DNA of 64,000 nt from Coriobacteriales bacterium (GCA_048173955.1 DBEYOB010000022.1:7048-71047), one strand, 5' to 3'. Positions 5,094 to 38,332 are shown, counted from the first letter of the stretch. Translations and numbers: made by a program. The notes: generated by a model from the sequence alone, not told the origin.

Positions 5094-7085
5094 TTAGATC
5101 TCTTCGCCCAGGGCGACCTTGGCGGCAAGCCACCCGAACGTAGCGCTCTTGCCGCCGGCTGCTCCGGCGGTGATGTTGGGATAGGTGTCGCAGAAGTAAC
5201 GGCCTGCGTCATTGCCCACGCAATACAGGCCGTCGATTACGCTGCCGTCGGGACGCAGCGCCTGGAGCTTGGTGTTTACCACGATGCCGTCGAACGTGCA
5301 CAGGATGAGGCCCGAGATGTAGGCGCCGTAGAACGGGGGCTGCGTGTAGTCCTGCATGCGGAAGGACTCCTTGCCAAAGTCTTCGTCGACGCCCTTGGCG
5401 CACAGCTCGTTGTAACGCTCCACGGTGGCGACCAGGTTTTCGACAGGCAGTCCGAGCTGCTCGGCGAGCTCCTCGATGGTATCGGCGCATGCGAAGCAGT
5501 CGGGGTTGTCGATCATGAACTGACCGCGCTGCTCGGTGGTGTCTTCCTTCATGTACTCGACCTCGCCGTCCCACAGGGGCATGGGAACGCTGCGGGAGCA
5601 GCCGTCGGTGTCGTAGGCGAGGTTGTGCTCGTGGTAGTTGCCGGGGATGATCTCGACCATCACGCCACCCTTGCCGGCGATGGCGTGCAGGCGGTAGTCG
5701 TAGGGGCCGCTCTCGTTGCAGAAGCGCTCGCCGTTGAGGTCCACGGTGAGGAAGGGCTGGCTACCCATCCAGAATAGCTTGCTTGCGTCTTCCTCAAGTG
5801 CCTTCTGCACGTCGGTGGTGCCGATGGGCAGCGCCGCGCGCTCGAACAGCATACAGGCCGTCTTGTCGTCCTTGGCTGCCCCTGCCCACAGGCACGCCTT
5901 GATGCCGTCGCCCTGGTTGGTGATGGGTGCGCGCTCGCCGGCGTAGACCTTGGCGGCCTGGGGCTGCAGGGCGCGCATCATCTCGCGGTTGTGGGCATAG
6001 CCGCCCGTGGCCATGATGACGCCCTTTTCGGCGTTGATGCGGATGTGGTCACCGTCCTCGTTGGTAGCGTACACGCCGAGCACTTTGCCGGTCTCGTCCT
6101 GGACGAGTTCGACCATCGAGGTGTTGTAGCGAAACGTGCCGCCGTTCTCTTCGACGTAGGCCTCCACGACCTGGGCGGGGTCGAGGCCGAGATCCTTGTC
6201 GGCGAGCACCTCGTTGCACTCGATGAAGCCGGTGTAGCGCGCCTCCTCATGGTTGGCGTAGTTCATGAGGTGCGGGCGCAGTCCGGCCTGCTTGCACAGG
6301 TCGTCGTAGAAGTCGAAGATGGCGCCGCTCTTGTCGTACCACAGGTGGACGAGCTTGGGGTCGTTCCAGTAGTTGGAGTAGCGGCCGAAATCCTCGGTGA
6401 TCTCGTTGCGGTCGATGGCGATGCCGGCGCTCTGCTGAAGTTTCGTGTTGATGGCGCCCATCTGGTAGCGGATGCCCAGGCCCACGGCGGCCTTGTCGAT
6501 GATGAGCGGGCTCGCGCCGGACTGGACGGCGCTCATGGCGGCAAAGTGACCCGCGGTGCCCGAGCCCACGATGAGCAGCTCGCAGTCGACGACCTCGACG
6601 CAGTCCTCGTCGGTGATGACGGGCTTCTCGCCGAGCCAGGAGGGAACCTCGGGAGAGGCGGTGCCGGGGGTCGCAGAGGCGTCCTCGACGGGCGCCGCGG
6701 CGCCGGTCGAGGCCTGCTCGAGCGCTGAGGCCATGGCTTTCTTGGCGGCGCCCGAGGTGATGGTGGCGCCGCTCACGCCCTCGATGTCGTCGGAGCCTGC
6801 GGCGAGCAGCTGGGCCTGCAGCTCGTCCTGGGCTGCGGCGCCGATCTCGGCGGTCTCGCCCGAGGTGTCAACGACGATGTCGGAGATGACGCCGGAGTCG
6901 TCGACGGTGATCGTCACGGTCACGGCGCTCTCGAGACCGTCGGCCGAGCCGGTATAGGTGCCGGGGACCAGTGCCCCGGCGGCCTCGTCGGCAAACGCGT
7001 GGGTTCCGGCGGCGGCCATCAGGCCGGTGGCGGCCAGGGCTGCTCCGGCTCCCGCGATGAAGCTTCTGCGCGATACGTTCTCCAT
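5094..7085 (-). CDS. Tat-signal flavoprotein reductase: N-terminal FMN_bind domain plus fumarate-reductase/flavocytochrome-c-like FAD domain
   Basis: Start is MENVSRRSFIAGAGAALAATGLMAAAGTHAFA (twin-arginine signal). FMN_bind domain has flavinylation-type motif DIEGVSGATITS. Dinucleotide fold is LLIVGSGTAGHFAAMSA. C-terminal motifs IEELAEQLGLP..LVATVERYNELCAKGVDEDFGK are typical of this family. Confidence 0.9.
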   Translation of the reverse strand: MENVSRRSFIAGAGAALAATGLMAAAGTHAFADEAAGALVPGTYTGSADGLESAVTVTITVDDSGVISDIVVDTSGETAEIGAAAQDELQAQLLAAGSDDIEGVSGATITSGAAKKAMASALEQASTGAAAPVEDASATPGTASPEVPSWLGEKPVITDEDCVEVVDCELLIVGSGTAGHFAAMSAVQSGASPLIIDKAAVGLGIRYQMGAINTKLQQSAGIAIDRNEITEDFGRYSNYWNDPKLVHLWYDKSGAIFDFYDDLCKQAGLRPHLMNYANHEEARYTGFIECNEVLADKDLGLDPAQVVEAYVEENGGTFRYNTSMVELVQDETGKVLGVYATNEDGDHIRINAEKGVIMATGGYAHNREMMRALQPQAAKVYAGERAPITNQGDGIKACLWAGAAKDDKTACMLFERAALPIGTTDVQKALEEDASKLFWMGSQPFLTVDLNGERFCNESGPYDYRLHAIAGKGGVMVEIIPGNYHEHNLAYDTDGCSRSVPMPLWDGEVEYMKEDTTEQRGQFMIDNPDCFACADTIEELAEQLGLPVENLVATVERYNELCAKGVDEDFGKESFRMQDYTQPPFYGAYISGLILCTFDGIVVNTKLQALRPDGSVIDGLYCVGNDAGRYFCDTYPNITAGAAGGKSATFGWLAAKVALGEEI

Positions 7086-7300
7086 GACGTGCTCCTTTCT
7101 ATCGGAACGTTCGGTCCCTGCGTGACGGACACCACGATGCGCCGCGAAGGCCGTAGACGAAAGGCGGAGCGAGGGGTGAAACCGTAGATGCATGCCGGCG
7201 TCTGGGGGGTGTGACAAACCTCACCCCGTCTGCGAGCTGCATGCGCAAGGGCGTTTGCCCCATAATGGGGCGCGGACGCGTGCGAAGCGTTTCGAGGAAG

Positions 7301-9195: not shown

Positions 9196-11682
9196 CTACA
9201 GCGCGCGGGCGACGAGGTTCGCGTTGGTCACGGCGCGCTGGATGTTCCAGGGCTCGGCGCAGTCGCCCACGGCGTGCACCTCATAGCCGGCCGCCGTCAG
9301 CTCGTCCGCCAGGGCGGTGTTCGCCACGACGTCGCAGCCCTCCACCACGGTGTCGCACGGCACGACGACCTCGGCGCCCGATGCATCGGTGATGGACAGG
9401 CCGCCATCCACCACGCCGTTGACCGTGGCGCTGTTGTAGACCTTGACGCCGTTCACCACGAGCTGGGCGAGCGCGTACTTGCGGATCCAGCCGGACTGCT
9501 GGGCGTCCAGGTCGTCGAACGTCGACCCGTGCACGAGCGCGACCTGCTTGCCCATGGCCTGCAGGCGCAGGGCCATGTCGGTCGCTTGCAGGCTGCCGCC
9601 CAGCAGCGCGACGCTGCCGCCGCAGCGGCACCCCGCTGCGCTCTCGAAGGGGATGACCTGCACGGCGTCGCTGCCTTCGAGCAGGCCTTCCTGGCGCGCG
9701 CCGCCGGTCGCCACGACGATGGCGTCGGGCGCGACGGAGGCGACCAGCCCGGCGTCGACCGCGGTGCCCGTCTCCACCGTCACGCCGGCGAGCTCGAGCT
9801 GGCGGGTCAGGTAGGCGCGGTAGTCCTCGAGGCGCTCGTGGTCGCCCTTGACGCCCTGGGCGAACGACAGGCTGCGCCCGAGCAGGGGCTGCGCCTCATA
9901 GAGGGTCACGCTGTGGCCGCGCTGCGCGGCGATGCGCGCGGCCTCCATGCCGGCGGGGCCGCCGCCAATCACCATGACGTTGCGGGGCGTCTCGGCGGGC
10001 ACCGGGTCGAAGCCCTCGGGCATCGCCTCGAGGTACGCGTGGCGCCAGGCGGCGCTGACGCGACACGACGAGGTGAACCTGCGGCTCGTGGATATGTTGT
10101 CGTGGCAGTGGAAGCAGCGCGTGCAAGGCATGGCCTCGTCGCGGCGGCCCTCCTGCAGCTTGTTGGGCAGCTCGGGGTCGACGTTGAGCGGGCGGTTCAT
10201 GTAGACCAGGTCGACCTTGCCGTCGGCCACGGCCTGGTTGATGAGGTCGGGCGCGGTGCGTGGGTCCATGTAGCCGGCGCAGCCCACGGGGACGCTCACG
10301 GCCTCCTTGATGGCGGTCGCCATGGGGATGAAGGCGCCCACGCCCGAGTGCGTCCCGTCCTCCAGCCCCTCGAAGGCGACGTCATAATCGAACAGGTGGC
10401 CGAAGCCGTCGACGCCGTCGGCGTGCCAGGCGAAGTGGTTGGTGTCGGGCGCCCAGCAGTTGGCCTCCTGGCCGGGGGTGCCCACGCGCACCTGGATGGC
10501 GTCGGTGCCCGCCGCCTCGAGGATTTGGGCGATCTGACGGGTCTCCTCGATGGAGAGGCAGGTCGGGTCGGTGCCGGGGGCGTTGTCGTACTCCTCGACG
10601 GCGTTGATGAGCGTCAGGACGACGAAGTCCTCGCCGCAGGCCTCCTTGACGGCGCGGATCATGTCGGTGAAGAACTTGCAACGGCTCTCGATGGTCTGGG
10701 GGCCGTACTCGTCTTCGCGCTGGTTCTTGCGGCGCGAGAGGAACGCGTTGAGGCCGTCCTGCGTGGCACCCTTGATCTCGATGGCGTCGCCGCCGGCCGC
10801 CTGGAAGCGCTGGGCAGCCGCCGCGACCTCGGCCACGTGGGCCTGGATGGTCTCGATGCTGTCCTCGTTCACGGTGGGCTCGCCGACCGGGCCGCCGTAG
10901 CTCACCTGCAGGCCGACGTAGGCGCCGCCCTGGTGGATGCGGTCGACGAGCGTCGCGGCGGTCGCGATGCCCTCCTCGACCGTCATGCCCTCGGCGGGAA
11001 CCTCGCCGGGCCCGATGCCCAGGTTGTCGAAGGCGCCGGCAAGCACGATCATGGCCACGCCGCCGTCGGCCATCTTGGCGTACAGGTCGAAGGCAACCGG
11101 GTTGATGCCCTCGTACTCGTCGGGCGACCAGGGGCTCGAGCCGGCCGACTTGATGATGCGGTTGCGCAGGGTGAGCGAGCCGATCTGGATGGGCTCGAAC
11201 AGGGCCGAGTAGTCGGTGGTGCAGGCGTCGTACGACTCGTCCTGCGGGGTGAGGGGCAGGTTGCGGAAGGCGTCCAGGCCGAGCGCCTGGAGCCAGCAGT
11301 CCTCGACGCCGTCGACGATGGCCTTGGTGCAAATGCTCGCGCCCGTGACGGCGTCGACTCCCTGGGTTCTGCCGGCCGCGGCGACGGCCTCGCAGTACGC
11401 GGCGCACGCGTCGGCAAGGGGGGTGAAGTAGTCGTTGTCCGACGTCTTGACGACCTTGTAGCCCACCGACGTCAGTTTGCCGTCCTCGAACGAGCAGGTG
11501 ACGACGACGTCGGCGTAGCCGGTGGTCTGGGCGCTCTCGTAGGTGCCCTGCGCCGCCCCGGAGGCTGCCGGCGCGGCCTCGTCGGCCACGGCGCTGTCCG
11601 CCCCGGCCGCAAGGGCCGACCCGATGACGCCGAGGGCCGCCGCCTTCACGAGGTTCCTGCGGGTAATCTCTGCAACTGCCAT
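9196..11682 (-). CDS. Tat-signal three-module flavoenzyme: FMN_bind + Old-Yellow-Enzyme/2,4-dienoyl-CoA-reductase-like TIM barrel with Cys cluster + FAD/NAD(P) Rossmann domain
   Basis: Start is MAVAEITRRNLVKAAALGVIGSALAAGA (RR signal, RBS aggagaaagg). FMN_bind motif is GVDAVTGASICT. OYE-like IQIGSLTLRNRIIKSAG. Cys cluster CTRCFHC-x13-C. Rossmann motif VMVIGGGPAGMEAARIAAQRGHSVTLYE. Confidence 0.88.
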   Translation of the reverse strand: MAVAEITRRNLVKAAALGVIGSALAAGADSAVADEAAPAASGAAQGTYESAQTTGYADVVVTCSFEDGKLTSVGYKVVKTSDNDYFTPLADACAAYCEAVAAAGRTQGVDAVTGASICTKAIVDGVEDCWLQALGLDAFRNLPLTPQDESYDACTTDYSALFEPIQIGSLTLRNRIIKSAGSSPWSPDEYEGINPVAFDLYAKMADGGVAMIVLAGAFDNLGIGPGEVPAEGMTVEEGIATAATLVDRIHQGGAYVGLQVSYGGPVGEPTVNEDSIETIQAHVAEVAAAAQRFQAAGGDAIEIKGATQDGLNAFLSRRKNQREDEYGPQTIESRCKFFTDMIRAVKEACGEDFVVLTLINAVEEYDNAPGTDPTCLSIEETRQIAQILEAAGTDAIQVRVGTPGQEANCWAPDTNHFAWHADGVDGFGHLFDYDVAFEGLEDGTHSGVGAFIPMATAIKEAVSVPVGCAGYMDPRTAPDLINQAVADGKVDLVYMNRPLNVDPELPNKLQEGRRDEAMPCTRCFHCHDNISTSRRFTSSCRVSAAWRHAYLEAMPEGFDPVPAETPRNVMVIGGGPAGMEAARIAAQRGHSVTLYEAQPLLGRSLSFAQGVKGDHERLEDYRAYLTRQLELAGVTVETGTAVDAGLVASVAPDAIVVATGGARQEGLLEGSDAVQVIPFESAAGCRCGGSVALLGGSLQATDMALRLQAMGKQVALVHGSTFDDLDAQQSGWIRKYALAQLVVNGVKVYNSATVNGVVDGGLSITDASGAEVVVPCDTVVEGCDVVANTALADELTAAGYEVHAVGDCAEPWNIQRAVTNANLVARAL

Positions 11683-11978
11683 GAACGTTCCCTTTCTCCT
11701 GGATGCACGCCGCACGGACGCCCCTGCCCCGCCGCACGGCTGCGCTCGGACGTCCCCATGGTGCCCGCCTCGGCCCGGCGACGTGGTACAGAAAACGGCC
11801 TATAGGGGCGGCCGGCGGGTGCCTATTTTTTCTGGTCCGGCATCTACCTGGCATTTTGCGCCCGACCGGTACGAGCCTCCCGTCTGCCTTCGCCGCCCTT
11901 CGGCGCGCTCCGGCGCGTTTTGGCGCATCAACCGCTACAATGGCAGGCGTGGGATTCGAGACGCGGGGGGTGCTGTGC

Positions 11979-13484: not shown

Positions 13485-13545
13485 GCCGGCGGAGCCCGGG
13501 GCGCCGTCGATGTGCAACGGGTTGACCGGGACGATGCGGGCTTCG

Positions 13546-15318
13546 CTACCCCTCCAGCCACACCTTGTCGAGCACAGCGGCGTTGTCGGGGCGGAAGTAC
13601 AGGTTGTGCACGCGGCTCGACGCCACGCAGCTATGCCGGTAGAACAGCAGCGGCACCACGGGGAAATCCTCCGCGAGGATGGCGTTGGCCTGCTGGTAGC
13701 CCGCGGTGCGCTCATCGGCGTCGAGCAGCTGCGCGGCGGCCAGGAACGTGTCGTCGAACTCGGGGTTCGAGTAGAACGACCAGTTGCCGCCCGTCCCGGT
13801 GCGGAACAGGTCGTTGAAGACGTAGTACGGCGACGGTACGAACCCGACCCAGCCGAGGCGCCCGAACTGGTAGTTGCCGCTCTCGAGCGCGTCGAGGTAG
13901 GTGGCCCACTCCTGCGTCTGCACCTGCGCGTCCACGCCGAGGCGCGCCAGGTCGGCCTGCACCATGAGCAGGATTGCCTCGTTCGAGGAGCCGGGGTTGC
14001 AGCCCAGCGTGATCGAGAGGCCGCGGCTGCCGTTCTCGTCGGCGGGGTAACCGGCCATGTCGAAATGCTCCGCCGCCTTGGCGTCGTCGTTGGTCGCGGG
14101 GCAGTGGGCCCACCCGCCCGCCTCGTAGCCGGGCATGATCGGCGTGAGCATGTTGTCGGCGGGAAGGCGCGTGCCCTGCATCACGGTGTCGCAGATTGCC
14201 TGGCGGTTGATGGCGTACGACATGCCGATGCGCACGTCCTTGTTCCCGGCGACCTCGTCGTCGAGGTTGCACAGGATGTAGTAGGTCGAGTTCTCGTCGC
14301 CGGTGAACGTCTGCTGTCCGGGGTTGGCGACGTAGCCGTTGTCGCCCGCCTCGCCGAACTGCGCGACGGTCGCCTCGAACAGGCCCGACGGGATGAACGT
14401 GTAGTCGAGGTTGCCGGCCTGGAACTCGGTCCAGGCGGTCTGGTCGTCGCTGAACACCTGGAAGTCGACCCCGTCGAGGAACGGCTTGTCGCCCCAGTAC
14501 CCGTCGAAGCGCTTGACGCGGATGTATTGGCCGTCGACCCACTCGCCGTCCATCATGAACGGGCCGTTGCCGATCGGGGCGATGCGGAAGGCTTGGAAGT
14601 CCTCCTCGGTGTCGGTGCATCCGGCGGGGACCGGGGCGGTCACCACGTCGGCGCACACGGCGTCGAACTCGGCGAACGGGAAGGCCAGGTTCACGACGAG
14701 CGTGTAGTCGTCGGGACATTCGACGTCGAGCTCGTCCGCCGTGCCCGCCATCATCTCGGTCGCTCCTTTGACCTGCTCGATCTTGTAGCCGACCGCCGAG
14801 GGGGCGGGCTTGAAGTCCGCGCGGCAGATGCGCTCCCACGCGTACTTGTAGTCGTGCGAGGTGACCGGCTGCCCGTTGTGGAACGTCGCGTCCTGGCGCA
14901 GGTGGAACGTGTACTGCGTGGCGTCCTCGTTGACCTCGTAGCTCTCGCACGCCTGCGGCACGACGCGGTTGTTCGCATAGTCGTAGCGGGTCAGCGTGTC
15001 GAAGAGGTTCGAGGCGATCTGGATGCCGTGGTTCTCCTCCGCGCCGAACGGCTCGATGGCGCCGGGGTTGGCGACGTACCACTTGAGGATGCCGCCCGCA
15101 ACGGCGCCATCGGTGTTCTCGCCATACGGGGCAACCTGGGCGTCCGCGGTGTCGGCGGCATCCGCCCCCGTGGCCTCTTCGGCGGGCTCCGCGTCGGCGA
15201 ATGCGGATCGGGTGCGCGCCCCAAGGGCGAGGGCCGCTGCGGTTGCGGCAGCGCCGGCGAGGAAGGTTCTGCGGGAAAGGTCGGCACGGGCGAAGCTGGT
15301 CGATGCGGACGTGCACAT
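13546..15318 (-). CDS. Family-5 (peptide/nickel/opine-type) ABC substrate-binding protein with twin-arginine-type signal; no cognate permease nearby
   Basis: Start is MCTSASTSFARADLSRRTFLAGAAATAAALALG with RBS aaggagg. Body motifs (YVANPGAIEPFGAEENHG, FHNGQPVTSHDYKYAWER, RVKRFDGYWG, GWVGFVPSPYYVF) are typical of SBP_bac_5. Confidence 0.85.
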   Translation of the reverse strand: MCTSASTSFARADLSRRTFLAGAAATAAALALGARTRSAFADAEPAEEATGADAADTADAQVAPYGENTDGAVAGGILKWYVANPGAIEPFGAEENHGIQIASNLFDTLTRYDYANNRVVPQACESYEVNEDATQYTFHLRQDATFHNGQPVTSHDYKYAWERICRADFKPAPSAVGYKIEQVKGATEMMAGTADELDVECPDDYTLVVNLAFPFAEFDAVCADVVTAPVPAGCTDTEEDFQAFRIAPIGNGPFMMDGEWVDGQYIRVKRFDGYWGDKPFLDGVDFQVFSDDQTAWTEFQAGNLDYTFIPSGLFEATVAQFGEAGDNGYVANPGQQTFTGDENSTYYILCNLDDEVAGNKDVRIGMSYAINRQAICDTVMQGTRLPADNMLTPIMPGYEAGGWAHCPATNDDAKAAEHFDMAGYPADENGSRGLSITLGCNPGSSNEAILLMVQADLARLGVDAQVQTQEWATYLDALESGNYQFGRLGWVGFVPSPYYVFNDLFRTGTGGNWSFYSNPEFDDTFLAAAQLLDADERTAGYQQANAILAEDFPVVPLLFYRHSCVASSRVHNLYFRPDNAAVLDKVWLEG

Positions 15319-15604
15319 GGCAAACCTCCTTATGTCGCATGATGCGCCCCGGCATGCAATCTTCGGGACCCTTCGCGACGCCGTCGCGGGACGTCCGATG
15401 CCGGGTGGTTTGCGCACGTATTATCCGACAACGACCGTTGTCGGCGCCATGGCGCGCCGGATGGGTCCGGGTGAGCGGCATAAAGCGGGCGGCATAAAGG
15501 CGCCCGGCGGCAGGGCGGCGCAGATGGCCGTCCCGCCGCCGGGCTTCAGGGGTCGTGCTTCGAGTTGGGCCCGACCGCGCGTGTGATTGGGCCCTGTGGG
15601 CCTC

Positions 15605-17761: not shown

Positions 17762-19435
17762 ATGACTATGGATCGCAGGTCGTTTCTCAAGGGGAGTGCC
17801 GCGGTGGCAGGCGGCGTAGCGGCCGTCGGTGCAATGGGCGCGACTGCGTTTGCCGACGAGGCTGAGGCCCCGTCGTGGGGCACCGTCGAGGTCGACGAGG
17901 ACGTCATTGCCGCGGTGGATGCCGAGAAGAGCGACGAGCCCCCCGCGTGGCTTGGCACGCCGCCCGACATCAGCGTCGACGACTGCGTCGAGACAGTCGA
18001 GACTGATATCGTGGTGGTCGGCTCCGCGTTGGCGGGCGTGCTCTCCGCGTATTCGGCCATCCAGAACGGTGCACAGGTTGTGATGATCGAGCGCAACGGT
18101 GCACCGCACATCAGCGGTTCGGGCATCGGCTTCTTCAACTCCGAATACCAGAAGGCCGGCGGACAGCCCGAGCACAACGAGCAGATCATCATGAACAAGG
18201 TGATCAACGAGGGGAACCTGCGCGTCGACGCGGCCCTGGTTGCCATGTGGGCCTACCACAGCGGCGAGATTCTCGACGAGCTCGAGGAGAACGTGCTACA
18301 GCCTGCTGGGCTGCCGGGCACCATCAGCATCGGCGAGCCGCTCGACGAGGAGGAGCTCGACCAGTACGAGGAGGCCTTCCACGTCGATTTCGACGACACG
18401 GGCAACGACAGCCTCGAGAAGTTCGACTACATCTTCCACGATTGGATCCGCGAGCATGGTGGCACCATCGCGTTCAACACCTGCGCTCGGGTGCTCACGC
18501 AGGACGAGGACGGCACGGTGACCGGCCTCATCGCGACCAATGAGAACGGCGAGTACGTGTATTACAAGGCGAACAAGGCCGTTATCATGTGCGCCGGCTC
18601 GTACGGCGGTAACGAGGAGATGGTCGACGCTCTGTGCTATCCGTCGATGGCCCAGTTCATCAAGAAGTACAGCGGCTATAACGCCAAGGCGAGCGAGACG
18701 GCGCCTATCACCACGGGCGAGAAGATGGACGACGGTATCGGCCACAGGATGATGTGCTGGGCCGGCGCCATCATGGAGGAAATCGACCCGTCGTATCAGG
18801 CATGGTCGAACACGGGCTACTGGATCGCCGCCCCGCTGGCCGTCAACAACAAGGGCGAGCGCTTCTTCAACGAGGCCATCTCGTCGCTGTCCTCGAGCTT
18901 TGCCATCTTCGAGCTTCCTGATGGGGCAAACTACGTGTGGCAGATCATGGGTTCCGACGACTTCGACTTCCCGGCTCTGCTGCCCATGCCCGGCGCCAAC
19001 CGCGAGATGATGGAGGCCATGGCTGCCGGCTCAGAGATGTACGAGGCCGACACCATCGAGGAGCTCGCCGGTCTGATCGGCGTGCCGGCCGACACGCTCG
19101 TGGCGACGGTCGAGCGCTACAACGAGCTGTGCGCGCTCGGAAAGGACGAGGATTACGGAAAGGGCGCGAACCACCTGCATCCCATCGACACCCCGCCGTT
19201 CAAGGCATACAAGGAAGCCTACTACTTCTTTGGCATGAGCTCTGGTGTCAAGGTGAACAAGAACCTGCAAGTCGTTGATGCCAACTGGGATCCCATCCCC
19301 CATCTGTATGCGGCTGGCAACTGCGTCGGTTGGCGCATGGGCTCCGGATACCAGAATGTGATTCCGGGCCTGTGCAACGCCTATGCGGCCGTGCATGGCT
19401 ACTACGCAGGCAAGAACGCGGCGGCCGAGGCCTAA
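17762..19435 (+). CDS. Tat-signal FAD-dependent reductase (fumarate-reductase/flavocytochrome-c-like), no FMN_bind domain
   Basis: Start is MTMDRRSFLKGSAAVAGGVAAVGAMGATAFA. It shares the paralog motif PAWLGTPPDISVDDCVETVETDIVVVGSALAG. C-terminal IEELAGLIGVPADTLVATVERYNELCALGKDEDYGK matches the other two FAD_binding_2-type paralogs. Confidence 0.88.
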   Translation: MTMDRRSFLKGSAAVAGGVAAVGAMGATAFADEAEAPSWGTVEVDEDVIAAVDAEKSDEPPAWLGTPPDISVDDCVETVETDIVVVGSALAGVLSAYSAIQNGAQVVMIERNGAPHISGSGIGFFNSEYQKAGGQPEHNEQIIMNKVINEGNLRVDAALVAMWAYHSGEILDELEENVLQPAGLPGTISIGEPLDEEELDQYEEAFHVDFDDTGNDSLEKFDYIFHDWIREHGGTIAFNTCARVLTQDEDGTVTGLIATNENGEYVYYKANKAVIMCAGSYGGNEEMVDALCYPSMAQFIKKYSGYNAKASETAPITTGEKMDDGIGHRMMCWAGAIMEEIDPSYQAWSNTGYWIAAPLAVNNKGERFFNEAISSLSSSFAIFELPDGANYVWQIMGSDDFDFPALLPMPGANREMMEAMAAGSEMYEADTIEELAGLIGVPADTLVATVERYNELCALGKDEDYGKGANHLHPIDTPPFKAYKEAYYFFGMSSGVKVNKNLQVVDANWDPIPHLYAAGNCVGWRMGSGYQNVIPGLCNAYAAVHGYYAGKNAAAEA

Positions 19436-27530: not shown

Positions 27531-29015
<1,485 letters not shown>

Positions 29016-29847: not shown

Positions 29848-29957
29848 GGCGGGTCCTGTTCTCGACGGTTTGGGTGCGCTGCCGGTTCGCGGGCAAGCAT
29901 AGCATGCCGCTGCGGCGCGGACGCTCCGCATGCTGTCGGCGCCCCGTCCCGGAACGG

Positions 29958-30079
29958 CTGTGCGGGCTGACACGTGTCTCATTTTCGGAAAACCCTCAAG
30001 TAGGCAGATGGGCGACCAGGCATTTTCCGCCAAACCCTCAACCCACTTGACGATAATCAATCGTAGTCAGCCCGCACAG
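29958..30079. mobile_element. MITE-like element, family 3, copy 2 (122 bp, perfect 14-bp TIR)
   Basis: CTGTGCGGGCTGAC at 29958-29971 and GTCAGCCCGCACAG at 30066-30079 are exact reverse complements. The 5' 45 bp align with 4720-4765. It sits in the divergent promoter region between the methyltransferase and the ABC transporter. Confidence 0.65.
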
Positions 30080-30339
30080 CCGAAATTACCCCGCCCCGCT
30101 GCCCGCAGCCGGCCCGCCCCGCTGCCCGCCCGCGGCCTCCCTTACACAACTGCAAGCCGCCGGCAAGCTCCTTCGATGGCACGCCGCGCCCCGTACGGGC
30201 ATTCTGGTAGGCGTACGATGGCATCCGTTTGGCGCCCGCCCGGCCGTCTGGACCGCCCGTCTGGCCGTCCGGACCGCCGGACTCGTCCGTCCGGGGCGCG
30301 AGGCAGGTGCGGGGCCTGCGATACGAAGGGAGACCGCCC

Positions 30340-31107
30340 ATGGCTGCGGTTCTGGAGGTCAAGAACGTCGAGAAGGTCTACGGGGGCCGCGGGTCGTCGA
30401 CCCGGGCGCTCGCGGGGGTGTCGTTTTCGGTCGAGAAGGGCGACTACGTGGGCATCATGGGCGCGTCGGGCTCCGGCAAGACCACGCTGCTCAACTGCAT
30501 CGCCACCATCGACGTCCCCACGAGCGGCGCGGTGCTCATCAACGGGCAGGACGTCACGCGCATGTCGCCCCGCCAGCTCTCCGACTTCCGCCGAGAGCAG
30601 CTCGGCTTCGTGTTCCAGGACGCCAACCTGCTCGACACGCTCACGGCGCGCGAGAACATCGCCCTGCCGCTCACCATCGGCCGCGTCGCGCCCAGGCAGA
30701 TCCGTGAGCGCGTCGAGGGCATGGCGGCCATGCTCGGCATCGAGGCTGTGCTCGACAAGTATCCCTACCAGATGTCGGGCGGCCAGCGCCAGCGCGTGGC
30801 GGCGGCGCGCGCCATGGTGGGCGACCCCAAGCTCGTGCTCGCCGACGAGCCCACCGGCGCGCTCGACTCCAAGAACGCCAAGCTTTTGCTCGAGTGCTTC
30901 GACATGCTCAACGAGCGCCTCGGCGCCACCATCCTCATGGTGACGCACGACTCGTTTGCCGCGAGCTACTGCAAGCGGGTCGTGTTCATCCGCGACGGCA
31001 AGGTGTTTACCGAGGTCGTGCGCGGGGCCGCCACGCGCAGGCAGTTCTTCGACCGCATCATGGAGGTCGTGGCGGTCATCGGGGGTGACCAGAGCGATGC
31101 TCGCTAA
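30340..31107 (+). CDS. ABC transporter ATP-binding protein (BceA/MacB-type)
   Basis: Walker A is GASGSGKTT, signature is QMSGGQRQRVAAARA, Walker B is LVLADEPTGALD. RBS gaaggga. Confidence 0.93.
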   Translation: MAAVLEVKNVEKVYGGRGSSTRALAGVSFSVEKGDYVGIMGASGSGKTTLLNCIATIDVPTSGAVLINGQDVTRMSPRQLSDFRREQLGFVFQDANLLDTLTARENIALPLTIGRVAPRQIRERVEGMAAMLGIEAVLDKYPYQMSGGQRQRVAAARAMVGDPKLVLADEPTGALDSKNAKLLLECFDMLNERLGATILMVTHDSFAASYCKRVVFIRDGKVFTEVVRGAATRRQFFDRIMEVVAVIGGDQSDAR

Positions 31108-33265
31108 ACTCGCCCTCGGCAACGTCCGCAAGTCGGCGCGCGACTATGCGGTGTACTTCGTGACCATCGTGCTCGGCGTCGCGGTGTTCTACGCGTTCAA
31201 CACGATTTCCGACCAGGCCGACTTCTTGAGCGGCTCGGCCGGCGACCTGCTCGAGGCGCTCGGCGGCATCATGCTCGGGCTCACGGTGTTCTTGGCGCTC
31301 GTCCTGGGCTTCCTCATGGTGTACGCCAACAACTACCTCGTGCGCCGGCGCAAGCGCGAGCTCGGCCTGTACCAGGTGCTCGGCATGCGGCGGGGCCAGG
31401 TCTCGGCCGTGCTTGCGCTTGAGACGCTCGTCGCCTCGGCGGCGTCGTTCGTGGCGGGTATCGTGCTCGGCGTCCTGCTCTCGCAGTTGCTCGTGTTCGT
31501 GACGGCGGCGCTGTTCCAGAGCCGCGTGGACTACTTCACGTTCCGCTTCTCGCCCTACGCGTTCTTCCTCACCCTGGGGTGCTTCGCCGTGATGTTCGCG
31601 GTGATGCTCCTGTTCAACCTGCGCGCCATCCGCAAGGTGCGCCTCGTGGAGCTCATGGAGAGCGAGCGGGTGAACGAGGACATCAAGGTGCGCAGCCTGC
31701 CGCTCGCCGTGGCGCTGTTCCTCGCGGGTGCCGCGCTCATCGCCGCCGCCTACGTGCGCCTGCTGCGCGACGGTCTGCCCATCTACGGCACCGAGAACGG
31801 CGAGGGCGTGCAGTTCGCCATCACCACCGTCATGGTCGTGGTGGGCACCCTGCTGTTCTTCTACGCGCTCTCGGGCTTTCTGCTGTCGCTCGTGCGCCGC
31901 GCGGGCTCGGTGTACTGGAGCGGGCTCAACATGTTCACGCTGCGCCAGCTCAACGCCAAGATCAACACCGCGTCGGTCTCGATGGCGGTCATCTCGCTCA
32001 TCCTGTTCCTCGCCATCACGAGCGTGACGGGCGGCATGAGCATCTGCAACACGATGAACCGCATGCTCGACCAGCATACCCCCTACGACGCCTCGCTGAG
32101 CGTGGTGCACTTCGGCGAGGAGGGGCTCAACTCGCTGCCCATGGGTGCCGACGGCGAGCCGGCCGAGGGCTACACGGTGGCGCAGGAGGAGCACGACGTG
32201 GCCGCGATGCTCGTCGACGGCGGTTACGACCTGGGCTCCATCGGCACCTACGTGCAGTCGACCCTGCGCGACGGGTCCACGGGCGACGGCGCCGAGGGGC
32301 TCGACATGATGCGCATTGCGCAGGAGACCGGTGCGGAAATTCCTTCGGCGCTGCGCAGCTCGATCGCGATGTCAGGCGACCGGACGGGCACCCTCGACGT
32401 GCTCTCGCAGAGCGACTACGCCGCCGTCCGCGCCTTCCTGGGGCTCGACCCCATCGAGATGGGGGAGGACGAGTACCTGTTCACCACCGATATCGGCGAC
32501 ACGATGGGCGCGTTCTACCGGGGTGTTGTGGATTCCGGGTACACCATCGAGATGGGCGGCCGCACCCTGACGCCGTGCGCGGAGGGCGTGGTGGGCGACC
32601 GGTCGGCGACCCTGATGAACAACCCCGCAGGCACCAACTACGGCACGGTCGTGCTGCCCGACGACATCGCTTCGCAGTTCGCGCCCTACATGACCTTCCT
32701 CAACGTGGACTACACCGTTCCGACCGAAGAGGGCGACGCCTACTTCGACGCGATGGGCGACCCTGACACCTCCGGCATCTTCGTCGAGGACGGCAAGACG
32801 TTCGCCTACATCGGGACCATCGTCACCGCCACGACCAACTACGAGTCCTCGGCCGGCATGACGGGCATCATCAGCTACATGGCCATCTACATCGGTTTTG
32901 TGCTCGTCATCTCCTGCGCCGCCATCCTCGCGATCCAGCAGCTCTCGGCGGCGAGCGACGCGCAAGGCAGCTACCGGCTGCTCTCCGAGCTCGGGTGCCC
33001 GCGGCGCCTCATGTACCGCTCGCTGCTTGTGCAGACGTGCGTCTACTTCCTGTTTCCGCTCGCGGTGGGCCTTGCCCACAGCCTCGTGGCACTGCGGGTG
33101 GTGACCGACGTGGTGGCGCTCTTCGGCAACCTCGACATCACGACCTCGGCGCTCATGACCGGAGGGCTGTTCGTGGTGGTGTACGGAGGCTATCTGCTCG
33201 TGACGTATCGGGTGGCGCGCGGCGTGATCCGTCAGGGCATGGTGGGCGCGCGGCGGGTCGAGTAA
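31097..33265 (+). CDS. BceB-type FtsX-family ABC permease with large extracytoplasmic domain
   Basis: Start is MLAKLALGNVRKSARDYAVYF, overlapping the ATPase gene by 11 bp. It has 10 predicted TM segments with a roughly 200-aa hydrophilic insert between TM7 and TM8, which is the BceB architecture. Confidence 0.85.
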   Translation: MLAKLALGNVRKSARDYAVYFVTIVLGVAVFYAFNTISDQADFLSGSAGDLLEALGGIMLGLTVFLALVLGFLMVYANNYLVRRRKRELGLYQVLGMRRGQVSAVLALETLVASAASFVAGIVLGVLLSQLLVFVTAALFQSRVDYFTFRFSPYAFFLTLGCFAVMFAVMLLFNLRAIRKVRLVELMESERVNEDIKVRSLPLAVALFLAGAALIAAAYVRLLRDGLPIYGTENGEGVQFAITTVMVVVGTLLFFYALSGFLLSLVRRAGSVYWSGLNMFTLRQLNAKINTASVSMAVISLILFLAITSVTGGMSICNTMNRMLDQHTPYDASLSVVHFGEEGLNSLPMGADGEPAEGYTVAQEEHDVAAMLVDGGYDLGSIGTYVQSTLRDGSTGDGAEGLDMMRIAQETGAEIPSALRSSIAMSGDRTGTLDVLSQSDYAAVRAFLGLDPIEMGEDEYLFTTDIGDTMGAFYRGVVDSGYTIEMGGRTLTPCAEGVVGDRSATLMNNPAGTNYGTVVLPDDIASQFAPYMTFLNVDYTVPTEEGDAYFDAMGDPDTSGIFVEDGKTFAYIGTIVTATTNYESSAGMTGIISYMAIYIGFVLVISCAAILAIQQLSAASDAQGSYRLLSELGCPRRLMYRSLLVQTCVYFLFPLAVGLAHSLVALRVVTDVVALFGNLDITTSALMTGGLFVVVYGGYLLVTYRVARGVIRQGMVGARRVE

Positions 33266-33526
33266 GGGGGTTCCGCAGTTTCGCAGGGCGCCTCTGGCTG
33301 GCACGGTGGCCGAGGGCGCCCTGCGGCTGGGAAATTCCCCGATTCGTAAACTCATTTTTTGGTTGAAAAAGTCTTTCATATTTATGGATATTTTATTACA
33401 ATACAGGTAAACACATATTGCAGAACGATATGTGTGTTTGTAACAACATGCGACGCGTCGCCAAGAGAGCAACTCAAAGTGCGGTGCCGTGCCCGGCAAC
33501 GGTTTGCCGCACAGATTGGTGGCACC

Positions 33527-34501
33527 ATGGACGCCGATTACCTTGCGCGCGTCACGTCGCTCTGCGTTCCCGCCTTCTACTTCGACTGCGTCGCCGCCGC
33601 GGCGATGCACAGCGCCGACCCGCTTGTCGCCGTGATTGCCCCGTTCTACTACGCCGGGGCGCTTCTGCTGCTCGCCTCCGCCGCGGTTCGCTGCCTGTTC
33701 GTCCGCATCGTCAGCATGCGGTTGGTTTTCGCGCTCGGCTCGGCGCTCCTCGCGCTGATCGGCGCGGCGTGCTGTTTTTGGGGGCGGCTGTGGGTCTCCC
33801 CGGTCGTGCTGTACATCCTGCTGTGGGGCATCGGGCTGCAGTTTTGCGCGAACGCGCTCGTCTGGTGCGCGGGGCTTGCGTGGACGAGATACCTCCCCGC
33901 CCTGGCTGCCATGGCCGTGTTTGCCTGCATGGGCGGTGCGCTCGGGGCGTTTCTTGCCCCGCGGATTGACTCCCTGGTCGGCCTGCAGGACTTGGTCTTC
34001 GCGGGGCTCGCCGTCGGGTCCGTGCTCGAGCTGCTGCTGAAGATGCGGCTGTGCATGGCGGCGGGCCCCGTGAAGGACGATGCGGCCTGCCCGAGTGAGG
34101 GGTCGCAGATTACGCAGGTGGCAGAGCCGCCCGCGGAACCCGTTCCGATTCCGGCCGCCGACCCGCCCCCGGCCTCCGATGCGCCGACCACGGCGCGGGA
34201 GGTTCTGGCCAAGTACGACGACATGTGCCGGTGGCTGATCGAGACGTTCCGGCTTACTAAGCGCGAGGGCGACGTCCTGTTCTTTGTCGCGCGCGGCTAC
34301 AAAGCCGCCTACTGCGCGCATGCGCTCGGCATCGCCGAGACGACGGTGCGCAGCCATATCCGCAGCATATACAGCAAGACGGGGGTCTACACGAGCGACG
34401 GGCTCATCAGCATGGTCGAGAGTTACCTGGAAGGAGAGGGCCGTCGGGCGCCTACCGAGGAGACGTCCCGTCGCCGGCAGCCAGCTCGACCGCGTCGATG
34501 A
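33527..34501 (+). CDS. Polytopic-membrane LuxR-family transcriptional regulator (short form)
   Basis: About 6 TM segments, a Pro/Ala-rich linker, then LTKREGDVLFFVARGYKAAYCAHALGIAETTVRSHIRSIYSKTGV. It is preceded by a roughly 200-bp AT-rich island. Confidence 0.75.
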   Translation: MDADYLARVTSLCVPAFYFDCVAAAAMHSADPLVAVIAPFYYAGALLLLASAAVRCLFVRIVSMRLVFALGSALLALIGAACCFWGRLWVSPVVLYILLWGIGLQFCANALVWCAGLAWTRYLPALAAMAVFACMGGALGAFLAPRIDSLVGLQDLVFAGLAVGSVLELLLKMRLCMAAGPVKDDAACPSEGSQITQVAEPPAEPVPIPAADPPPASDAPTTAREVLAKYDDMCRWLIETFRLTKREGDVLFFVARGYKAAYCAHALGIAETTVRSHIRSIYSKTGVYTSDGLISMVESYLEGEGRRAPTEETSRRRQPARPRR

Positions 34502-35945: not shown

Positions 35946-36289
35946 GGCCGACCTTTCTCGAGGCTTTGCCCACAGTGTAACCCTGGCCCGTGCCCGGCCG
36001 GCCCGCGTGTTCCGCGATGTGGAGATACCGTGCGGCGCCGAAATGGCCGCGAAGGACGAAAGGCCTGCTCAGCGTGGTTCATCCCAGGGGGACGAGGACA
36101 ACTCCCCGCGGTCGCACCGCTGTGCCGAGCTTGCTCAAAAGCGCTGGCAGAAGGCGGTGTTGAGGTTTCATCCCGCGGGGTCGAGGGCGGTTTGCGCCCG
36201 GCGTGGCATAGTCCGCATCGTCAAGCCCGCCGCGCAGGGCGCAGGCGGCGCGAACAGCGTGCGTCACCACGACAGAAAGGGAACGCAAC

Positions 36290-38332
36290 ATGGAACTCAC
36301 CCGTCGCAACTTCCTCGCAGGCGCCGCGACCACCGCCGCGGTCGCCACCGCGGCCGGCAGCGTCACGCTCGCCGCCGCCCCCGAGGCCGCCCAGGCCAAG
36401 GCCCCCGCCGAGGACAACTCCGACTGGCTCGGCACCGCCCCCGATATCTCCGAGGACGAGATCGTCGAGACCCGCGAGTGCGAGCTGCTCATCGTGGGCG
36501 CCGGCAACGGCGGCATGCCCGCTGCCGCTACCGCGGCCGAGCTCGGTGTCGACTTCATCATCGCCGAGAAGAGCACGATGGTGTGCGGCGAGCGCGGCTG
36601 GCTCGGCGCCGTGAACTCCCACTACCTCACCGATCAGGGCCTCGAGGACGACAAGGGCAAGATTCTCAACGAGCTCGCCCGCTACGCCTCCGGCAAGTGC
36701 GACATGCGCGTGTGGAAGGTCTGGATCGACGAGTCCGCCGAGATGATCGACTGGCTCGACCAGGTCTACGCCCCGCTCAACCTCACCTGCACGCTCGACG
36801 TCGACAACCAGGACCCCACGGGCGGCACCCTCTACTACATCCCCCGCACCGAGCACTTCTACAACGGCGAGGACGGCCGCCCTGCCCGCAACGCCATCTT
36901 CGAGCGCTACATCAACAGCCTCGGCTACCAGGTGACCTATGAGACGGCCCTCGTCAAGCTCGAGCGCGAGGAGGGCGGCCGCGTGACCGGCGGCATCTTC
37001 ACCACGCCCAACGGCTACGTGCGCATCAACGCCTCCGCCGGCGTGCTGCTCACCACGGGCGGCTACCCGGCCAACCCGCAGATGGTGCAGGCCTGCGCCC
37101 CCATCATCGAGCGCGTCGTGACCCTGGTGTACTACAACACCAATGACACCGGCGACGGCATCAAGGCCGCCATGTGGGTCGGCGCCCAGAAGGACGAGGA
37201 CCAGGCCCCCATGCTCTTCAACCGCGGTCTCGTGAAGCCCGGCGAGAGCGCCGGCTACACCTCCACCGAGGGCACCGGCAGCTTCGCCGGCGTGGGCAAG
37301 CAGTACAACATCGGCTCGCAGCCGTTCCTCAAGGTCGACCGTACCGGCCGCCGCTACGGAAACGAGTCGGTGCCCTACGACTTCGACCTCAACGCGATCG
37401 CCGAGCGTCCGGGCGGCGTCTTCTGCCAGGTGTTCGACGCCAACGCCAAGGAAGACATCATGCGCTTCAACACCATCGGCTGCTCGCGCCAGATTCAGCA
37501 GCAGCTGGCCGCGCATGAGGGCACCCTCGAGGAGTTCTTCGCCGACAAGATCGAAGAGGGCACCATCTTCGTGGCCGACACCATCGAGGAGCTTGCCGAC
37601 AAGCTCGGCTTCGAGGGCGAGGCCAAGGACACGTTCCTGGCCGAGGTCGACCGCTACAACACTCTCTACGACAACCAGCTCGACGAGGACTTCGGCAAGG
37701 AGGCCTACCGCCTCTCCGAGCTGCGCACCCCGCCGTTCTTCGGCGGTTGGTACGGTGCGAGCTTCCTTACCACGGTCGACGGCCTGCGCATCAACGAGAA
37801 CATGCAGGTGCTCGACATGGAGGACCAGGTCATCCCCGGCCTGTACGCCGCCGGCGACTGCTCGGGCAGCCTGTTCGCCAACAACTACCCCGAGCTCATC
37901 GTGGCCAACGCCTGCGGCCGCACGGTGACCTTCGGCCGCCACGCCGTTCGCCATATCGCCGAGCAGGCCGGCTACGACATCACGGCCGTCACCATGGGCG
38001 ACGCGACCTACGGTGCCGACGCGGAGGCCGAGGCCGAGGAGGCCGCCGCTCCCGCCGGCCCCCTGGCCGACGGCACCTACGAGGGCACCGGCAAGGGCAT
38101 CGGCGGCGACGTGCCGGTGACCGTGACCGTCGAGGGCGGCGCCATCACCGCCGTCGAGGTCGGCGACAACTCCGAGACCCAGGGCATCGGCTCCAACGCC
38201 ATCGAGCAGCTGCCCGCGGCCATCGTCGCGGCCAACGGCACGAGCGGCGTGGAGGGCGTCTCCGGCGCCACCATCACCTCGACGGCCATCTTCGACGCGG
38301 TGAACGACTGCCTGGCTCAGGCGAGCGCGTAG
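36290..38332 (+). CDS. Tat-signal flavoprotein reductase: FAD (fumarate-reductase-like) domain plus C-terminal FMN_bind domain
   Basis: Start is MELTRRNFLAGAATTAAVATAAGSVTLAAAPEAAQA. Then SDWLGTAPDISEDEIVETRECELLIVGAGNGG. The C-terminal FMN_bind domain (GTYEGTGKGIGGDVPVTVTVEGGAITAVEV) has flavinylation-type motif GVEGVSGATITS. Confidence 0.9.
   Translation: MELTRRNFLAGAATTAAVATAAGSVTLAAAPEAAQAKAPAEDNSDWLGTAPDISEDEIVETRECELLIVGAGNGGMPAAATAAELGVDFIIAEKSTMVCGERGWLGAVNSHYLTDQGLEDDKGKILNELARYASGKCDMRVWKVWIDESAEMIDWLDQVYAPLNLTCTLDVDNQDPTGGTLYYIPRTEHFYNGEDGRPARNAIFERYINSLGYQVTYETALVKLEREEGGRVTGGIFTTPNGYVRINASAGVLLTTGGYPANPQMVQACAPIIERVVTLVYYNTNDTGDGIKAAMWVGAQKDEDQAPMLFNRGLVKPGESAGYTSTEGTGSFAGVGKQYNIGSQPFLKVDRTGRRYGNESVPYDFDLNAIAERPGGVFCQVFDANAKEDIMRFNTIGCSRQIQQQLAAHEGTLEEFFADKIEEGTIFVADTIEELADKLGFEGEAKDTFLAEVDRYNTLYDNQLDEDFGKEAYRLSELRTPPFFGGWYGASFLTTVDGLRINENMQVLDMEDQVIPGLYAAGDCSGSLFANNYPELIVANACGRTVTFGRHAVRHIAEQAGYDITAVTMGDATYGADAEAEAEEAAAPAGPLADGTYEGTGKGIGGDVPVTVTVEGGAITAVEVGDNSETQGIGSNAIEQLPAAIVAANGTSGVEGVSGATITSTAIFDAVNDCLAQASA

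Follow-up and report, generated by a model that had tools for sequence, protein, structure and literature searches.

What might four exported flavoenzymes be doing on one short piece of chromosome, each encoded beside its own membrane-spanning DNA-binding protein, and how might such pairs work? The question is raised by a 33 kb region (positions 5,094 to 38,332) in a 64,000-nucleotide (nt) stretch of DNA from a Coriobacteriales bacterium (GCA_048173955.1, DBEYOB010000022.1:7048-71047), which we call the window and by whose numbering all positions are given. The region contains five genes for transmembrane proteins with a GerE DNA-binding domain (L1 to L5), four of which are divergent from genes for flavoenzymes with a twin-arginine translocation (Tat) signal (R1 to R4). 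We conclude that these are probably four independent, modular cassettes of sensor and enzyme on the chromosome of an uncultured gut member of the Eggerthellaceae, each inducible by a substrate and of the type published for that family. As such, they are further examples of a design already documented in Eggerthella lenta.

Linkage of the enzymes and their regulators

The window is high in GC (61-72 per cent) and full of spurious open reading frames (ORFs), from which the real genes were picked out with a third-position GC filter. A first-pass annotation of the window had described nine genes, forming the divergent pairs R1-L1 to R4-L4 plus L5 as an extra regulator, and this arrangement was recovered in full (Table 1). 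Its coordinates for the regulators could be kept in four of the five cases. The start of L3 is most likely at 17504 and not at 17594, because the resulting length fits both the gene call on a conspecific contig (L002) and the orthologues, including the one at locus L006.

Three of the four pairs are adjacent in other species as well, in otherwise unrelated neighbourhoods. For R1-L1, the orthologous locus L014 (where one extra reductase gene is inserted) encodes an enzyme with 77 per cent identity and a regulator with 62 per cent. The corresponding values for R2-L2 are 79 and 54 per cent at L013 and 55 and 35 per cent at L011, and those for R3-L3 are 75 and 47 per cent at L006 and 70 and 42 per cent at L007. 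The regulator is thus always more diverged than its enzyme. Five membrane-GerE genes within 33 kb, four of them divergent from Tat flavoenzymes, exceed what chance would give. Related contigs show the same clustering of membrane-GerE and flavoenzyme cassettes, and on conspecific metagenome contigs (L001 to L003 among them) the gene order is that of the window. The host is an uncultured Coriobacteriia metagenome-assembled genome (MAG) related to Rubneribacter. With R3 as the host marker, the nearest species representative is a MAG at 95 per cent identity, while Candidatus Rubneribacter avistercoris stands at 70 per cent.

Arrangements of this kind are known from cultured relatives. Dong et al. 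(2022; PMC9734109) listed 83 transmembrane LuxR regulators for E. lenta, of which 50 adjoin flavin enzymes. They found DadR, HcdR, and CadR to be substrate-specific activators, DadR being inactive without its transmembrane domain, and their deletions show strict control of the neighbouring gene with no cross-reaction. Little et al. (10.1101/2022.12.26.521950) counted 64 reductase genes directly neighbouring such regulators and reported that a substrate induces its own reductase. The Eggerthellaceae reductase-regulator architecture that the first-pass annotation had proposed for the region matches both studies.

Like L1 to L5, the E. lenta proteins DadR, HcdR, CadR, and Cac3 combine an N-terminal polytopic domain with a C-terminal GerE/LuxR domain in a Coriobacteriia host, and in both sets the helix-turn-helix is well conserved and the transmembrane domain poorly so. 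The genes of the E. lenta regulators, like those of L1 to L4, adjoin a secreted redox enzyme and are usually divergent from it. The three characterized E. lenta proteins control molybdopterin catechol dehydroxylases, whereas L1 to L4 adjoin flavoenzymes; the fifty flavoenzyme-adjacent regulators listed by Dong et al. were not studied there. L1 to L4 have the structural and positional features of the family, namely a GerE domain, ten to twelve transmembrane helices, and an adjoining secreted enzyme in a member of the Coriobacteriia. Activation of the neighbouring gene by the substrate of its product, a further trait of the family, is predicted for them, with the conserved linkage as indirect support. 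L5 has the GerE domain only, and with about six helices and no adjacent enzyme it is unlike the E. lenta regulators of ten to twelve helices.

Table 1. Genes of the four cassettes, the additional regulator, and candidate regulatory sequences between the divergent genes (window positions).
Feature	Position	Strand	Length or sequence	Description
R1	5094..7085	-	663 aa	FMN_bind (N-terminal), then FAD_binding_2 (Pfam)
R2	9196..11682	-	828 aa	Weak FMN_bind, Oxidored_FMN, Pyr_redox_2 (Pfam)
R3	17762..19435	+	557 aa	FAD_binding_2 only, no FMN_bind (Pfam)
R4	36290..38332	+	680 aa	FAD_binding_2, then C-terminal FMN_bind (Pfam)
L1	7301..8821	+	506 aa	At least 10 transmembrane helices (hydropathy); C-terminal GerE, E = 5.9e-11 (Pfam); divergent from R1
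L2	11979..13484	+	501 aa	12 transmembrane helices (AlphaFold); C-terminal GerE (Pfam); divergent from R2
L3	16041..17504	-	487 aa	GTG start; 12 transmembrane helices (AlphaFold); C-terminal GerE (Pfam); divergent from R3
L4	34452..35945	-	497 aa	About 11 transmembrane helices (hydropathy); C-terminal GerE (Pfam); divergent from R4
L5	33527..34501	+	324 aa	About 6 transmembrane helices (hydropathy); GerE (Pfam); no adjacent reductase
R1-L1 blocks	7158..7227		CGAAAGGCGGAGCGAGGGGTGAAA (7158-7181); GGGGTGTGACAAACCTCACCCC (7206-7227)	Candidate operator/promoter blocks, the second an imperfect inverted repeat
R2-L2 block	11788..11837		ACAGAAAACGGCCTATAG ... GCCTATTTTTTCTGGTC	Candidate promoter/operator block
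L3-R3 palindromes	17613-17634, 17662-17683		CCCCTTGCA(A)GGGG type	Two palindromes, candidate operators for an L3 dimer
L4-R4 repeat	36078..36186		TTCATCCCAGGGGGACGAGG (36078-36097), TTCATCCCGCGGGGTCGAGG (36167-36186)	Possible operator, 20-nt direct repeat

The enzymes and their supply of electrons

Each of the four enzyme genes starts with ATG behind a GAAAGG ribosome-binding site. The Tat signals proposed by the first-pass annotation are present in all four products, with a twin-arginine motif (SRRSFIA in R1, TRRNLVK in R2, DRRSFLK in R3, and TRRNFLA in R4) followed by a hydrophobic stretch and an AxA cleavage site. A loose twin-arginine-type pattern also occurs at the N-terminus of 91/110 homologues of R3 and 111/116 homologues of R2.

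The same annotation had treated the four enzymes as paralogs, which holds for three of them. R1, R3, and R4 match FAD_binding_2 (PF00890) with E-values of 9e-38, 3e-32, and 1e-34; their pairwise identities of 35 per cent (R1 against R4), 31 per cent, and 28 per cent are those of old paralogs. R2 has instead the domains of an old yellow enzyme (OYE) with an Fe-S motif and Rossmann domains, and its overlap with the other three is limited to the FMN_bind domain. Its sole match to PF00890 is a 42-residue Rossmann stretch, which does not qualify. A junction motif, WLG..P.I...VG, had been described as specific to the paralogs. It is real in R1, R3, and R4, but 58/110 R3 homologues from other organisms carry it too, a distribution that makes it a family-wide signature.

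Among solved structures, the best relatives of R1, R3, and R4 are urocanate reductase and flavocytochrome c3, and the best match of R1 in the PDB is the urocanate reductase 6t85 (E = 1.7e-28). Models and structures of 3-ketosteroid dehydrogenase (KstD) score all three about as highly as urocanate or fumarate reductases do. We also looked for near-identity to a characterized reductase, the outcome on which the first-pass annotation would have given up its proposal, and database searches found no close named or characterized relative for any of R1 to R4. None of the four reaches an NCBIfam cut-off, the highest scores being 146-192 bits for vinyl-phenol reductase (cut-off 600) and 268 bits for long bilirubin reductase (cut-off 750). 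The nearest representatives of R1 among clusters at 50 per cent are at 77 per cent and then 45 per cent or less, none of them named. Homologues of R3 outside its own cluster reach 77 per cent identity at most, and its best match from a cultured organism is in Eggerthella sp. YY7918 (55 per cent); the 90 per cent cluster of R4 has no named member.

The aligned active sites differ from those of the solved relatives. The SR of UrdA, which holds a catalytic Arg, aligns with K-L in R1, the HHTMGG of UrdA aligns with LCTFDG, and the Arg of the GYNR motif in flavocytochrome c3 (1qo8) aligns with Asn. In this alignment, R1 has other residues at all three positions (Arg, His, and Arg) that form the lining of the substrate site in urocanate and fumarate reductases, and R3 and R4 look the same at the equivalent C-terminal motifs, judged by inspection of those motifs only. 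Given these substitutions, simple carboxylates of the fumarate or urocanate type are probably not the substrates of R1, R3, and R4.

The E. lenta enzymes UrdA, CrdA-D, and IrdA resemble these three in having a PF00890 domain, an export signal, and a neighbouring transmembrane regulator. The arginine pair of UrdA and fumarate reductase, which marks the clade 1 active site, is absent from R1 in the alignment and from R3 and R4 on inspection, as it is from clades 2-4 of Little et al. (10.1101/2022.12.26.521950). In their motifs, R1, R3, and R4 resemble these non-arginine clades, while still falling inside the superfamily.

The first-pass annotation had also called the region cgr-type. Like the cgr locus (PMC5953540), it has a Tat-exported FAD_binding_2 reductase with a non-canonical active site beside a LuxR-type regulator, and R3 shares with Cgr2 the absence of an FMN_bind domain. 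The likeness ends there. The cgr locus includes a gene for the multihaem cytochrome Cgr1, whereas none adjoins R1 to R4, and three of the four enzymes have a flavinylation domain. R3 differs from Cgr2 in that its conserved cysteines do not make up a set for an Fe-S cluster; Cys75 and Cys457 are the only two kept at 95 per cent or more, and we rejected a Cgr2-like cluster in R3 on this ground. Since the closest homologues of Cgr2 were reported at below 28 per cent identity (Koppel et al. 2018; PMC5953540), orthology of these enzymes to Cgr2 is unlikely, as judged by the published description of Cgr2 alone.

One further locus carries relatives of R3 and L3 side by side. On the MAG contig L004 (8264-11672), the R3 homologue is 95 per cent identical to R3 over its last 443 residues and only 76 per cent over its first 115, and the L3 homologue beside it is 52-67 per cent identical. 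Both genes are split over reading frames, which suggests either that the copy is recombinant or decaying or that the assembly contains errors.

R2 is a different kind of enzyme. Behind its Tat signal come an FMN_bind-like domain, a TIM barrel of the OYE type, a cysteine motif for a 4Fe-4S cluster (C520..C540), and two Rossmann domains; the Oxidored_FMN barrel and the C-terminal Rossmann part match Pfam with E-values of 1.4e-32 and 1.8e-15. The FMN_bind match scores 21.4 against a cut-off of 22 bits, and the domain is 37 per cent identical to that of R4. Matches in the PDB include FadH (1ps9) and NCR (6qkg). The TIM barrel with its flavin mononucleotide (FMN), the four-cysteine 4Fe-4S motif, and the two Rossmann domains are shared with FadH, the clostridial enoate reductases, BaiCD, and BilR. 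R2 aligns to FadH over the barrel and the cluster cysteines (CTRCFHC..C against CIGCNQAC..C), with one residue fewer between the second and third Cys.

It is unlike the FadH family in being Tat-exported, in its added flavinylation domain, and in having Lys304 and Asp309 at the catalytic sites. In the alignment, Lys304 faces a His of the OYE-type enzyme 8e5h, where FadH has Met, and Asp309 stands at the position of the Tyr that is the proton donor in both. Neither the catalytic Tyr nor the His/Asn pair of the OYE branch is therefore found in R2, and Lys304 and Asp309 are invariant among 117 family members. We had considered a loss of the NAD(P)H site but dropped it, as GxGxxA at the second Rossmann motif is kept in most of the family.

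This family is large. Full-length relatives with 45-57 per cent identity occur in many metagenome clusters and in records from Bellilinea, Lachnospiraceae, and Adlercreutzia, one of them from Adlercreutzia aquisgranensis (48 per cent). The flavinylation motif is kept in 107/116 members and its Thr/Ser in 108/117. Searches that included NCBIfam and the PDB found no characterized member, and R2 scores far below every curated cut-off, with 268 bits for BilR-long (cut-off 750) and 210 for BaiCD (cut-off 825). R2 is not a PF00890 enzyme and so falls outside the census of Little et al., and its type of fusion, of a flavinylation domain to an OYE/Fe-S enzyme, is not mentioned in the survey of Meheust et al. 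(2021; PMC8238504). From its sequence, R2 may represent a widespread class of OYE/Fe-S reductases that are exported and flavinylated and have Lys and Asp in the active site, although our confidence that it defines such a class falls a little short of even. A class of this type would be missed by censuses of respiratory reductases built on PF00890 and PF00384.

How would electrons reach these enzymes? Within their FMN_bind matches, R1, R2, and R4 carry the motif [S/T]GA[S/T], the signature of flavinylation by ApbE, as SGAT (105-108), TGAS (113-116), and SGAT (658-661), respectively. The domain varies in position, being N-terminal in R1 and R2 and C-terminal in R4. As the first-pass annotation had noted, no ApbE or electron-donating cytochrome is encoded nearby: Pfam scans of the window ORFs found no gene for ApbE and no cytochrome domain, including any of a membrane-anchored multihaem cytochrome c like Cgr1. 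In known cases, FMN_bind domains connect extracytosolic PF00890 reductases to donors in the membrane whose genes lie elsewhere in the genome (PMC8238504), so this absence is expected, and it is normal for FMN_bind reductases. In Shewanella UrdA and Listeria FrdA, which like R1, R2, and R4 have FMN_bind with [S/T]GA[S/T] fused to an exported reductase, the membrane donor and ApbE are both encoded elsewhere (PMC8238504).

In the mechanism we propose, R1 to R4 would be folded with their cofactors in the cytoplasm, exported through the Tat pathway, and there reduce a small organic electron acceptor, possibly in respiration. R1, R2, and R4 would receive electrons through the covalently flavinylated FMN_bind domain, with ApbE and a membrane donor encoded elsewhere in the genome. 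R3 has no FMN_bind and so needs a separate electron-donating partner, from which its electrons would come.

Two observations concern genes beside R1 and its orthologue. An ORF next to R1 (3673-4656, plus strand) has a flavodoxin-like N-terminus and a C-terminal 2x[4Fe-4S] part, separated by an Arg/Gly-rich low-complexity stretch; its third-position GC is below that of its neighbours, and it may be decaying. We rejected this Fer4 ORF as the membrane donor, since it is a cytoplasmic flavodoxin-ferredoxin fusion with no transmembrane segment. At L014 (4115-7777), the R1 orthologue is the second gene of a two-reductase operon whose first gene encodes a 532-aa FAD_binding_2 enzyme without FMN_bind, which raises the possibility of one flavinylated enzyme serving a partner that lacks the domain.

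The regulators, their candidate operators and the surrounding genes

All five regulators match GerE/LuxR (PF00196) above the gathering score, with E-values from 6e-9 to 6e-14. The first-pass annotation had given the paired regulators ten to twelve transmembrane helices each. A crude hydropathy count finds ten in L1, ten in L2, eight in L3, eleven in L4, and six in L5, and the models described below have twelve for L2 and for L3. Ten to twelve helices thus suit L1 to L4 but not L5. L1 and L2 are 31 per cent identical over 382 aa and L4 is colinear with the L2 family over 390 columns, while L5 aligns with that family by its helix-turn-helix only. L5 is convergent with L4 (with a 50-bp overlap) and lies downstream of genes for an ATP-binding cassette (ABC) ATPase and an FtsX-type permease of 773 aa, which share its strand (30211-34501). 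This suggests that L5 is linked to the ABC/FtsX transporter rather than to a reductase.

AlphaFold models were obtained for two of the regulators. The L2 model, whose alignment comprised L2, twenty-three relatives, and L1, has a predicted local distance difference test score (pLDDT) of 81 and a predicted template-modelling score (pTM) of 0.75. It shows twelve helices arranged as 6+6, a disordered linker, and a helical DNA-binding domain. The top 50 PDB matches found by Foldseek are all transporters of the major facilitator superfamily (MFS), with a probability of 1.00 and target-normalized TM-scores of 0.47-0.68. The L3 model (pLDDT 78) also has twelve helices, and its top 50 Foldseek matches in the PDB are likewise all MFS-type transporters. 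Two sequence features lie near the predicted cytoplasmic face. A motif common to L1 to L4, (R/K)xxV(N/A)(A/P)LxLxG, occupies the loop that joins helices 10 and 11 and is expected on the cytoplasmic side, and TWG just past helix 12 is invariant in the L2 family.

Transporter-fold membrane proteins that act as ligand sensors are known, in UhpC of the UhpC-UhpB-UhpA system and in the yeast transceptors Snf3 and Rgt2, and UhpA, the output of the Uhp pathway, is a DNA binder of the GerE/NarL family. We propose, tentatively and as something slightly less than an even prospect, that the polytopic domains of the regulators are MFS-fold modules reused as ligand sensors, making each protein a single-chain transceptor. 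A rocker-switch movement would then be passed to the GerE domain, and the protein would amount to the UhpC-UhpB-UhpA pathway collapsed into one polypeptide. Unlike that system, L1 to L4 hold sensor and DNA-binding domain in one chain with no kinase or phosphorelay, and the likeness is one of predicted structure only. Dong et al. left the mechanism of the transmembrane LuxR proteins open, and MFS, transporters, AlphaFold, and operators are absent from their text (PMC9734109). A survey of transmembrane regulators, which gives about 117 per Eggerthella genome, does not mention the fold.

The intergenic regions of the four pairs contain repeats that are candidate operators, to which the regulators would putatively bind. 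An inverted-repeat tool run on the four regions returned nothing at its thresholds; the short dyads came to light when the sequence was read directly and in a custom scan. Between R1 and L1, the two blocks in Table 1 are conserved in the orthologous intergenic region of L014, the remainder of which barely aligns. They contain an inverted repeat GGGGTG..CACCCC and another copy of GGGGTGA. The R2-L2 block is AT-rich (CAGAAAA/GCCTAT) and is largely kept in L013 and partly in L011. The two palindromes upstream of R3 are about 44 bp apart, centre to centre, and their dyad symmetry survives changes of sequence in the corresponding regions of L004, L006, and L007, where the variants are CCCTTTGCAAGGG in L007, CCCTGTCAGGG and CCCCTTGCGAGGGG in L004, and CCCCTTGCAAGGGG in L006. 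A single CCCC-N5-GGGG operator for all pairs was considered and rejected, as the R1-L1 palindrome of this kind (7257-7271) is not conserved in L014 while the other blocks are. From these comparisons, each pair appears to have a motif of its own.

Each regulator would, on this evidence, act as a one-component membrane sensor in which the 12-helix domain of MFS-type fold binds the substrate of the neighbouring enzyme. A change at the cytoplasmic face would be relayed by the loop between helices 10 and 11 and by the TWG motif to the GerE helix-turn-helix. This would bind, probably as a dimer, to the repeats in the shared divergent promoter region, and the enzyme gene would be activated (rather than released from repression).

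The genes beside L3 deserve a separate remark. A 118-aa ORF with no Pfam match (15605-15961) and a Tat-signal family-5 solute-binding protein (13546-15420), which has no adjoining permease or ATPase genes, lie downstream of L3 on the same minus strand, and the three may be co-transcribed. The gene for the solute-binding protein is not linked to L3 in Ca. Rubneribacter avistercoris (L007).

The genes among and around the pairs encode regulators of the MarR and MocR types, a two-component system, a Tat-signal peptide-binding protein, aminopeptidase C, an aldehyde dehydrogenase, a methyltransferase, and the ABC/FtsX transporter. Farther along the window are an MFS protein, a patatin, rpiB, upp, and a complete ATP synthase operon. 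The first-pass annotation had called the region an island. We rejected a mobile island, as housekeeping genes separate the pairs, the window has no tRNA gene and no integrase was seen in it, and GC content is even over the window with no compositional break. The region is ordinary chromosome.

Several further features of the window are recorded here. A PD-(D/E)XK transposase-like gene (22943-24076, minus strand) splits the two-component system, with the response regulator (22188-22856) on one side and the histidine kinase (24154-25308) on the other, and contigs L001 to L003, which are conspecific, have the same layout. Eleven copies of a 24-nt motif, GGTCRWW-N8-GARTGCRTG, are present against 0.02 expected. 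The copies form two intergenic clusters (26887-27220 and 43008-43290) with a spacing of about 40 nt, upstream of the aldehyde dehydrogenase and rpiB genes, and plus- and minus-strand copies face each other. The stretch 26885-27175 folds as a 291-nt hairpin (-147.7 kcal/mol, z = -9.2), and the clusters have no match in Rfam. The arrays could be an element like a miniature inverted-repeat transposable element or a repetitive extragenic palindrome, or they could be operator arrays. There are also two pairs of intergenic repeats of about 50 nt, at 3499-3551 and 20414-20466 (85 per cent identical) and at 4716-4763 and 29954-30001 (79 per cent). Lastly, in the stretch 59216-63275 (minus strand), an MMPL-family gene is directly followed by an ORF of 646 aa that has no Pfam match; their open frames overlap, and the stretch contains an internal 66-nt repeat (59502-59567 and 60141-60206).

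Competing explanations and what the cassettes mean

A number of points weigh against the account given above. It is computational as a whole: induction by substrates and the operators are predicted, and what it says of function draws on analogy with the published systems. L5 is a regulator with no cognate enzyme, and R3 has no visible module for electron entry, only two of its cysteines being conserved. For R4-L4, no orthologous locus was found, and the metagenome scan for R4 gave two fragments only. PF00890 includes dehydrogenases such as KstD, and the catalytic direction of R1, R3, and R4 is an assumption. The sensor fold raises difficulties of its own. The alignment behind the L3 model is dominated by relatives of L2, so this model is not independent of the L2 model. 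No MFS family in Pfam matches any of the twenty-five aligned regulators at E <= 5, and a profile comparison with the window's own MFS protein was negative (probability 0.06). As both were negative, we rejected homology to MFS at the level of sequence, and the MFS likeness of the regulators is confined to the predicted fold.

There is a different view of the enzymes, in which they mainly transform xenobiotics or work oxidatively (for instance by KstD-like dehydrogenation that feeds the chain) and do not conserve energy, with the regulators still in control. The comparable KstD scores and the substituted substrate-site residues of R1 would both fit, and flavinylated modules are known to serve extracytosolic oxidases as well (PMC8238504). 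No oxidase partner is encoded nearby, however, and the active site of Cgr2 is non-canonical too, yet that enzyme is a reductase (PMC5953540). The E. lenta PF00890 enzymes that have signal peptides, lie by transmembrane regulators, and have been tested are acceptor-induced reductases supporting ATP synthesis (10.1101/2022.12.26.521950), and we consider a mainly oxidative or xenobiotic-transforming role unlikely. It is quite unlikely, too, that the 12-helix domains are working MFS transporters that import the substrate while the fused helix-turn-helix reports flux. Their predicted fold does match genuine transporters, among them carriers of aromatic carboxylates and monoamines, and in the models the 6+6 topology is intact with both termini cytoplasmic. 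Import would serve no purpose for enzymes that are themselves exported, though, and the lack of any Pfam MFS match counts here as well. Moreover, the transmembrane domains diverge very fast, to below 20-30 per cent identity, which fits ligand-specific sensors (PMC9734109).

The palindromes upstream of R3 admit a reading as hairpins in an mRNA leader, acting by attenuation or in the manner of a riboswitch, instead of as DNA operators. They are capable of forming hairpins, lie 80-150 nt 5' of the start codon, and keep their pairing through symmetric changes. Yet the region folds as RNA no better than shuffled sequence (z = -0.84), the stems are just 4-7 bp, and Rfam has no match in the window, while two similar dyads about 44 bp apart are typical of sites for dimeric helix-turn-helix proteins; we hold RNA control of R3 to be very unlikely. 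Most improbable of all is that adjacency is incidental and that the regulators control other genes or sense a general redox or membrane signal. L5, which follows the ABC/FtsX transporter with no reductase, does indicate that membrane GerE proteins are not always tied to an enzyme. Against this stand the linkage of three pairs across species amid changing surroundings and the published deletions, in which control of the neighbouring gene was strict and without cross-reaction (PMC9734109). Four substrate-inducible cassettes, each of an exported reductase and its own membrane sensor, thus remain the explanation that we prefer.

Eggerthellaceae transform drugs, dietary polyphenols, and host metabolites with dozens of such reductases per genome, most of which have no assigned substrate. 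The four cassettes described here add uncharacterized enzymes to that number rather than a new principle, and three things deserve to be followed up: the transporter fold predicted for the sensor domain, the dyads specific to each cassette, and the enzyme family of R2. Pairs of regulator and promoter could be used as reporters to find the inducer, and hence the substrate. The R2 family points to exported ene-reductases outside the families that are usually counted. The predicted MFS fold suggests where a ligand may bind and which loop may relay the signal. If the regulators are indeed transceptors, roughly one hundred of them per Eggerthellaceae genome would gain a concrete mechanism.

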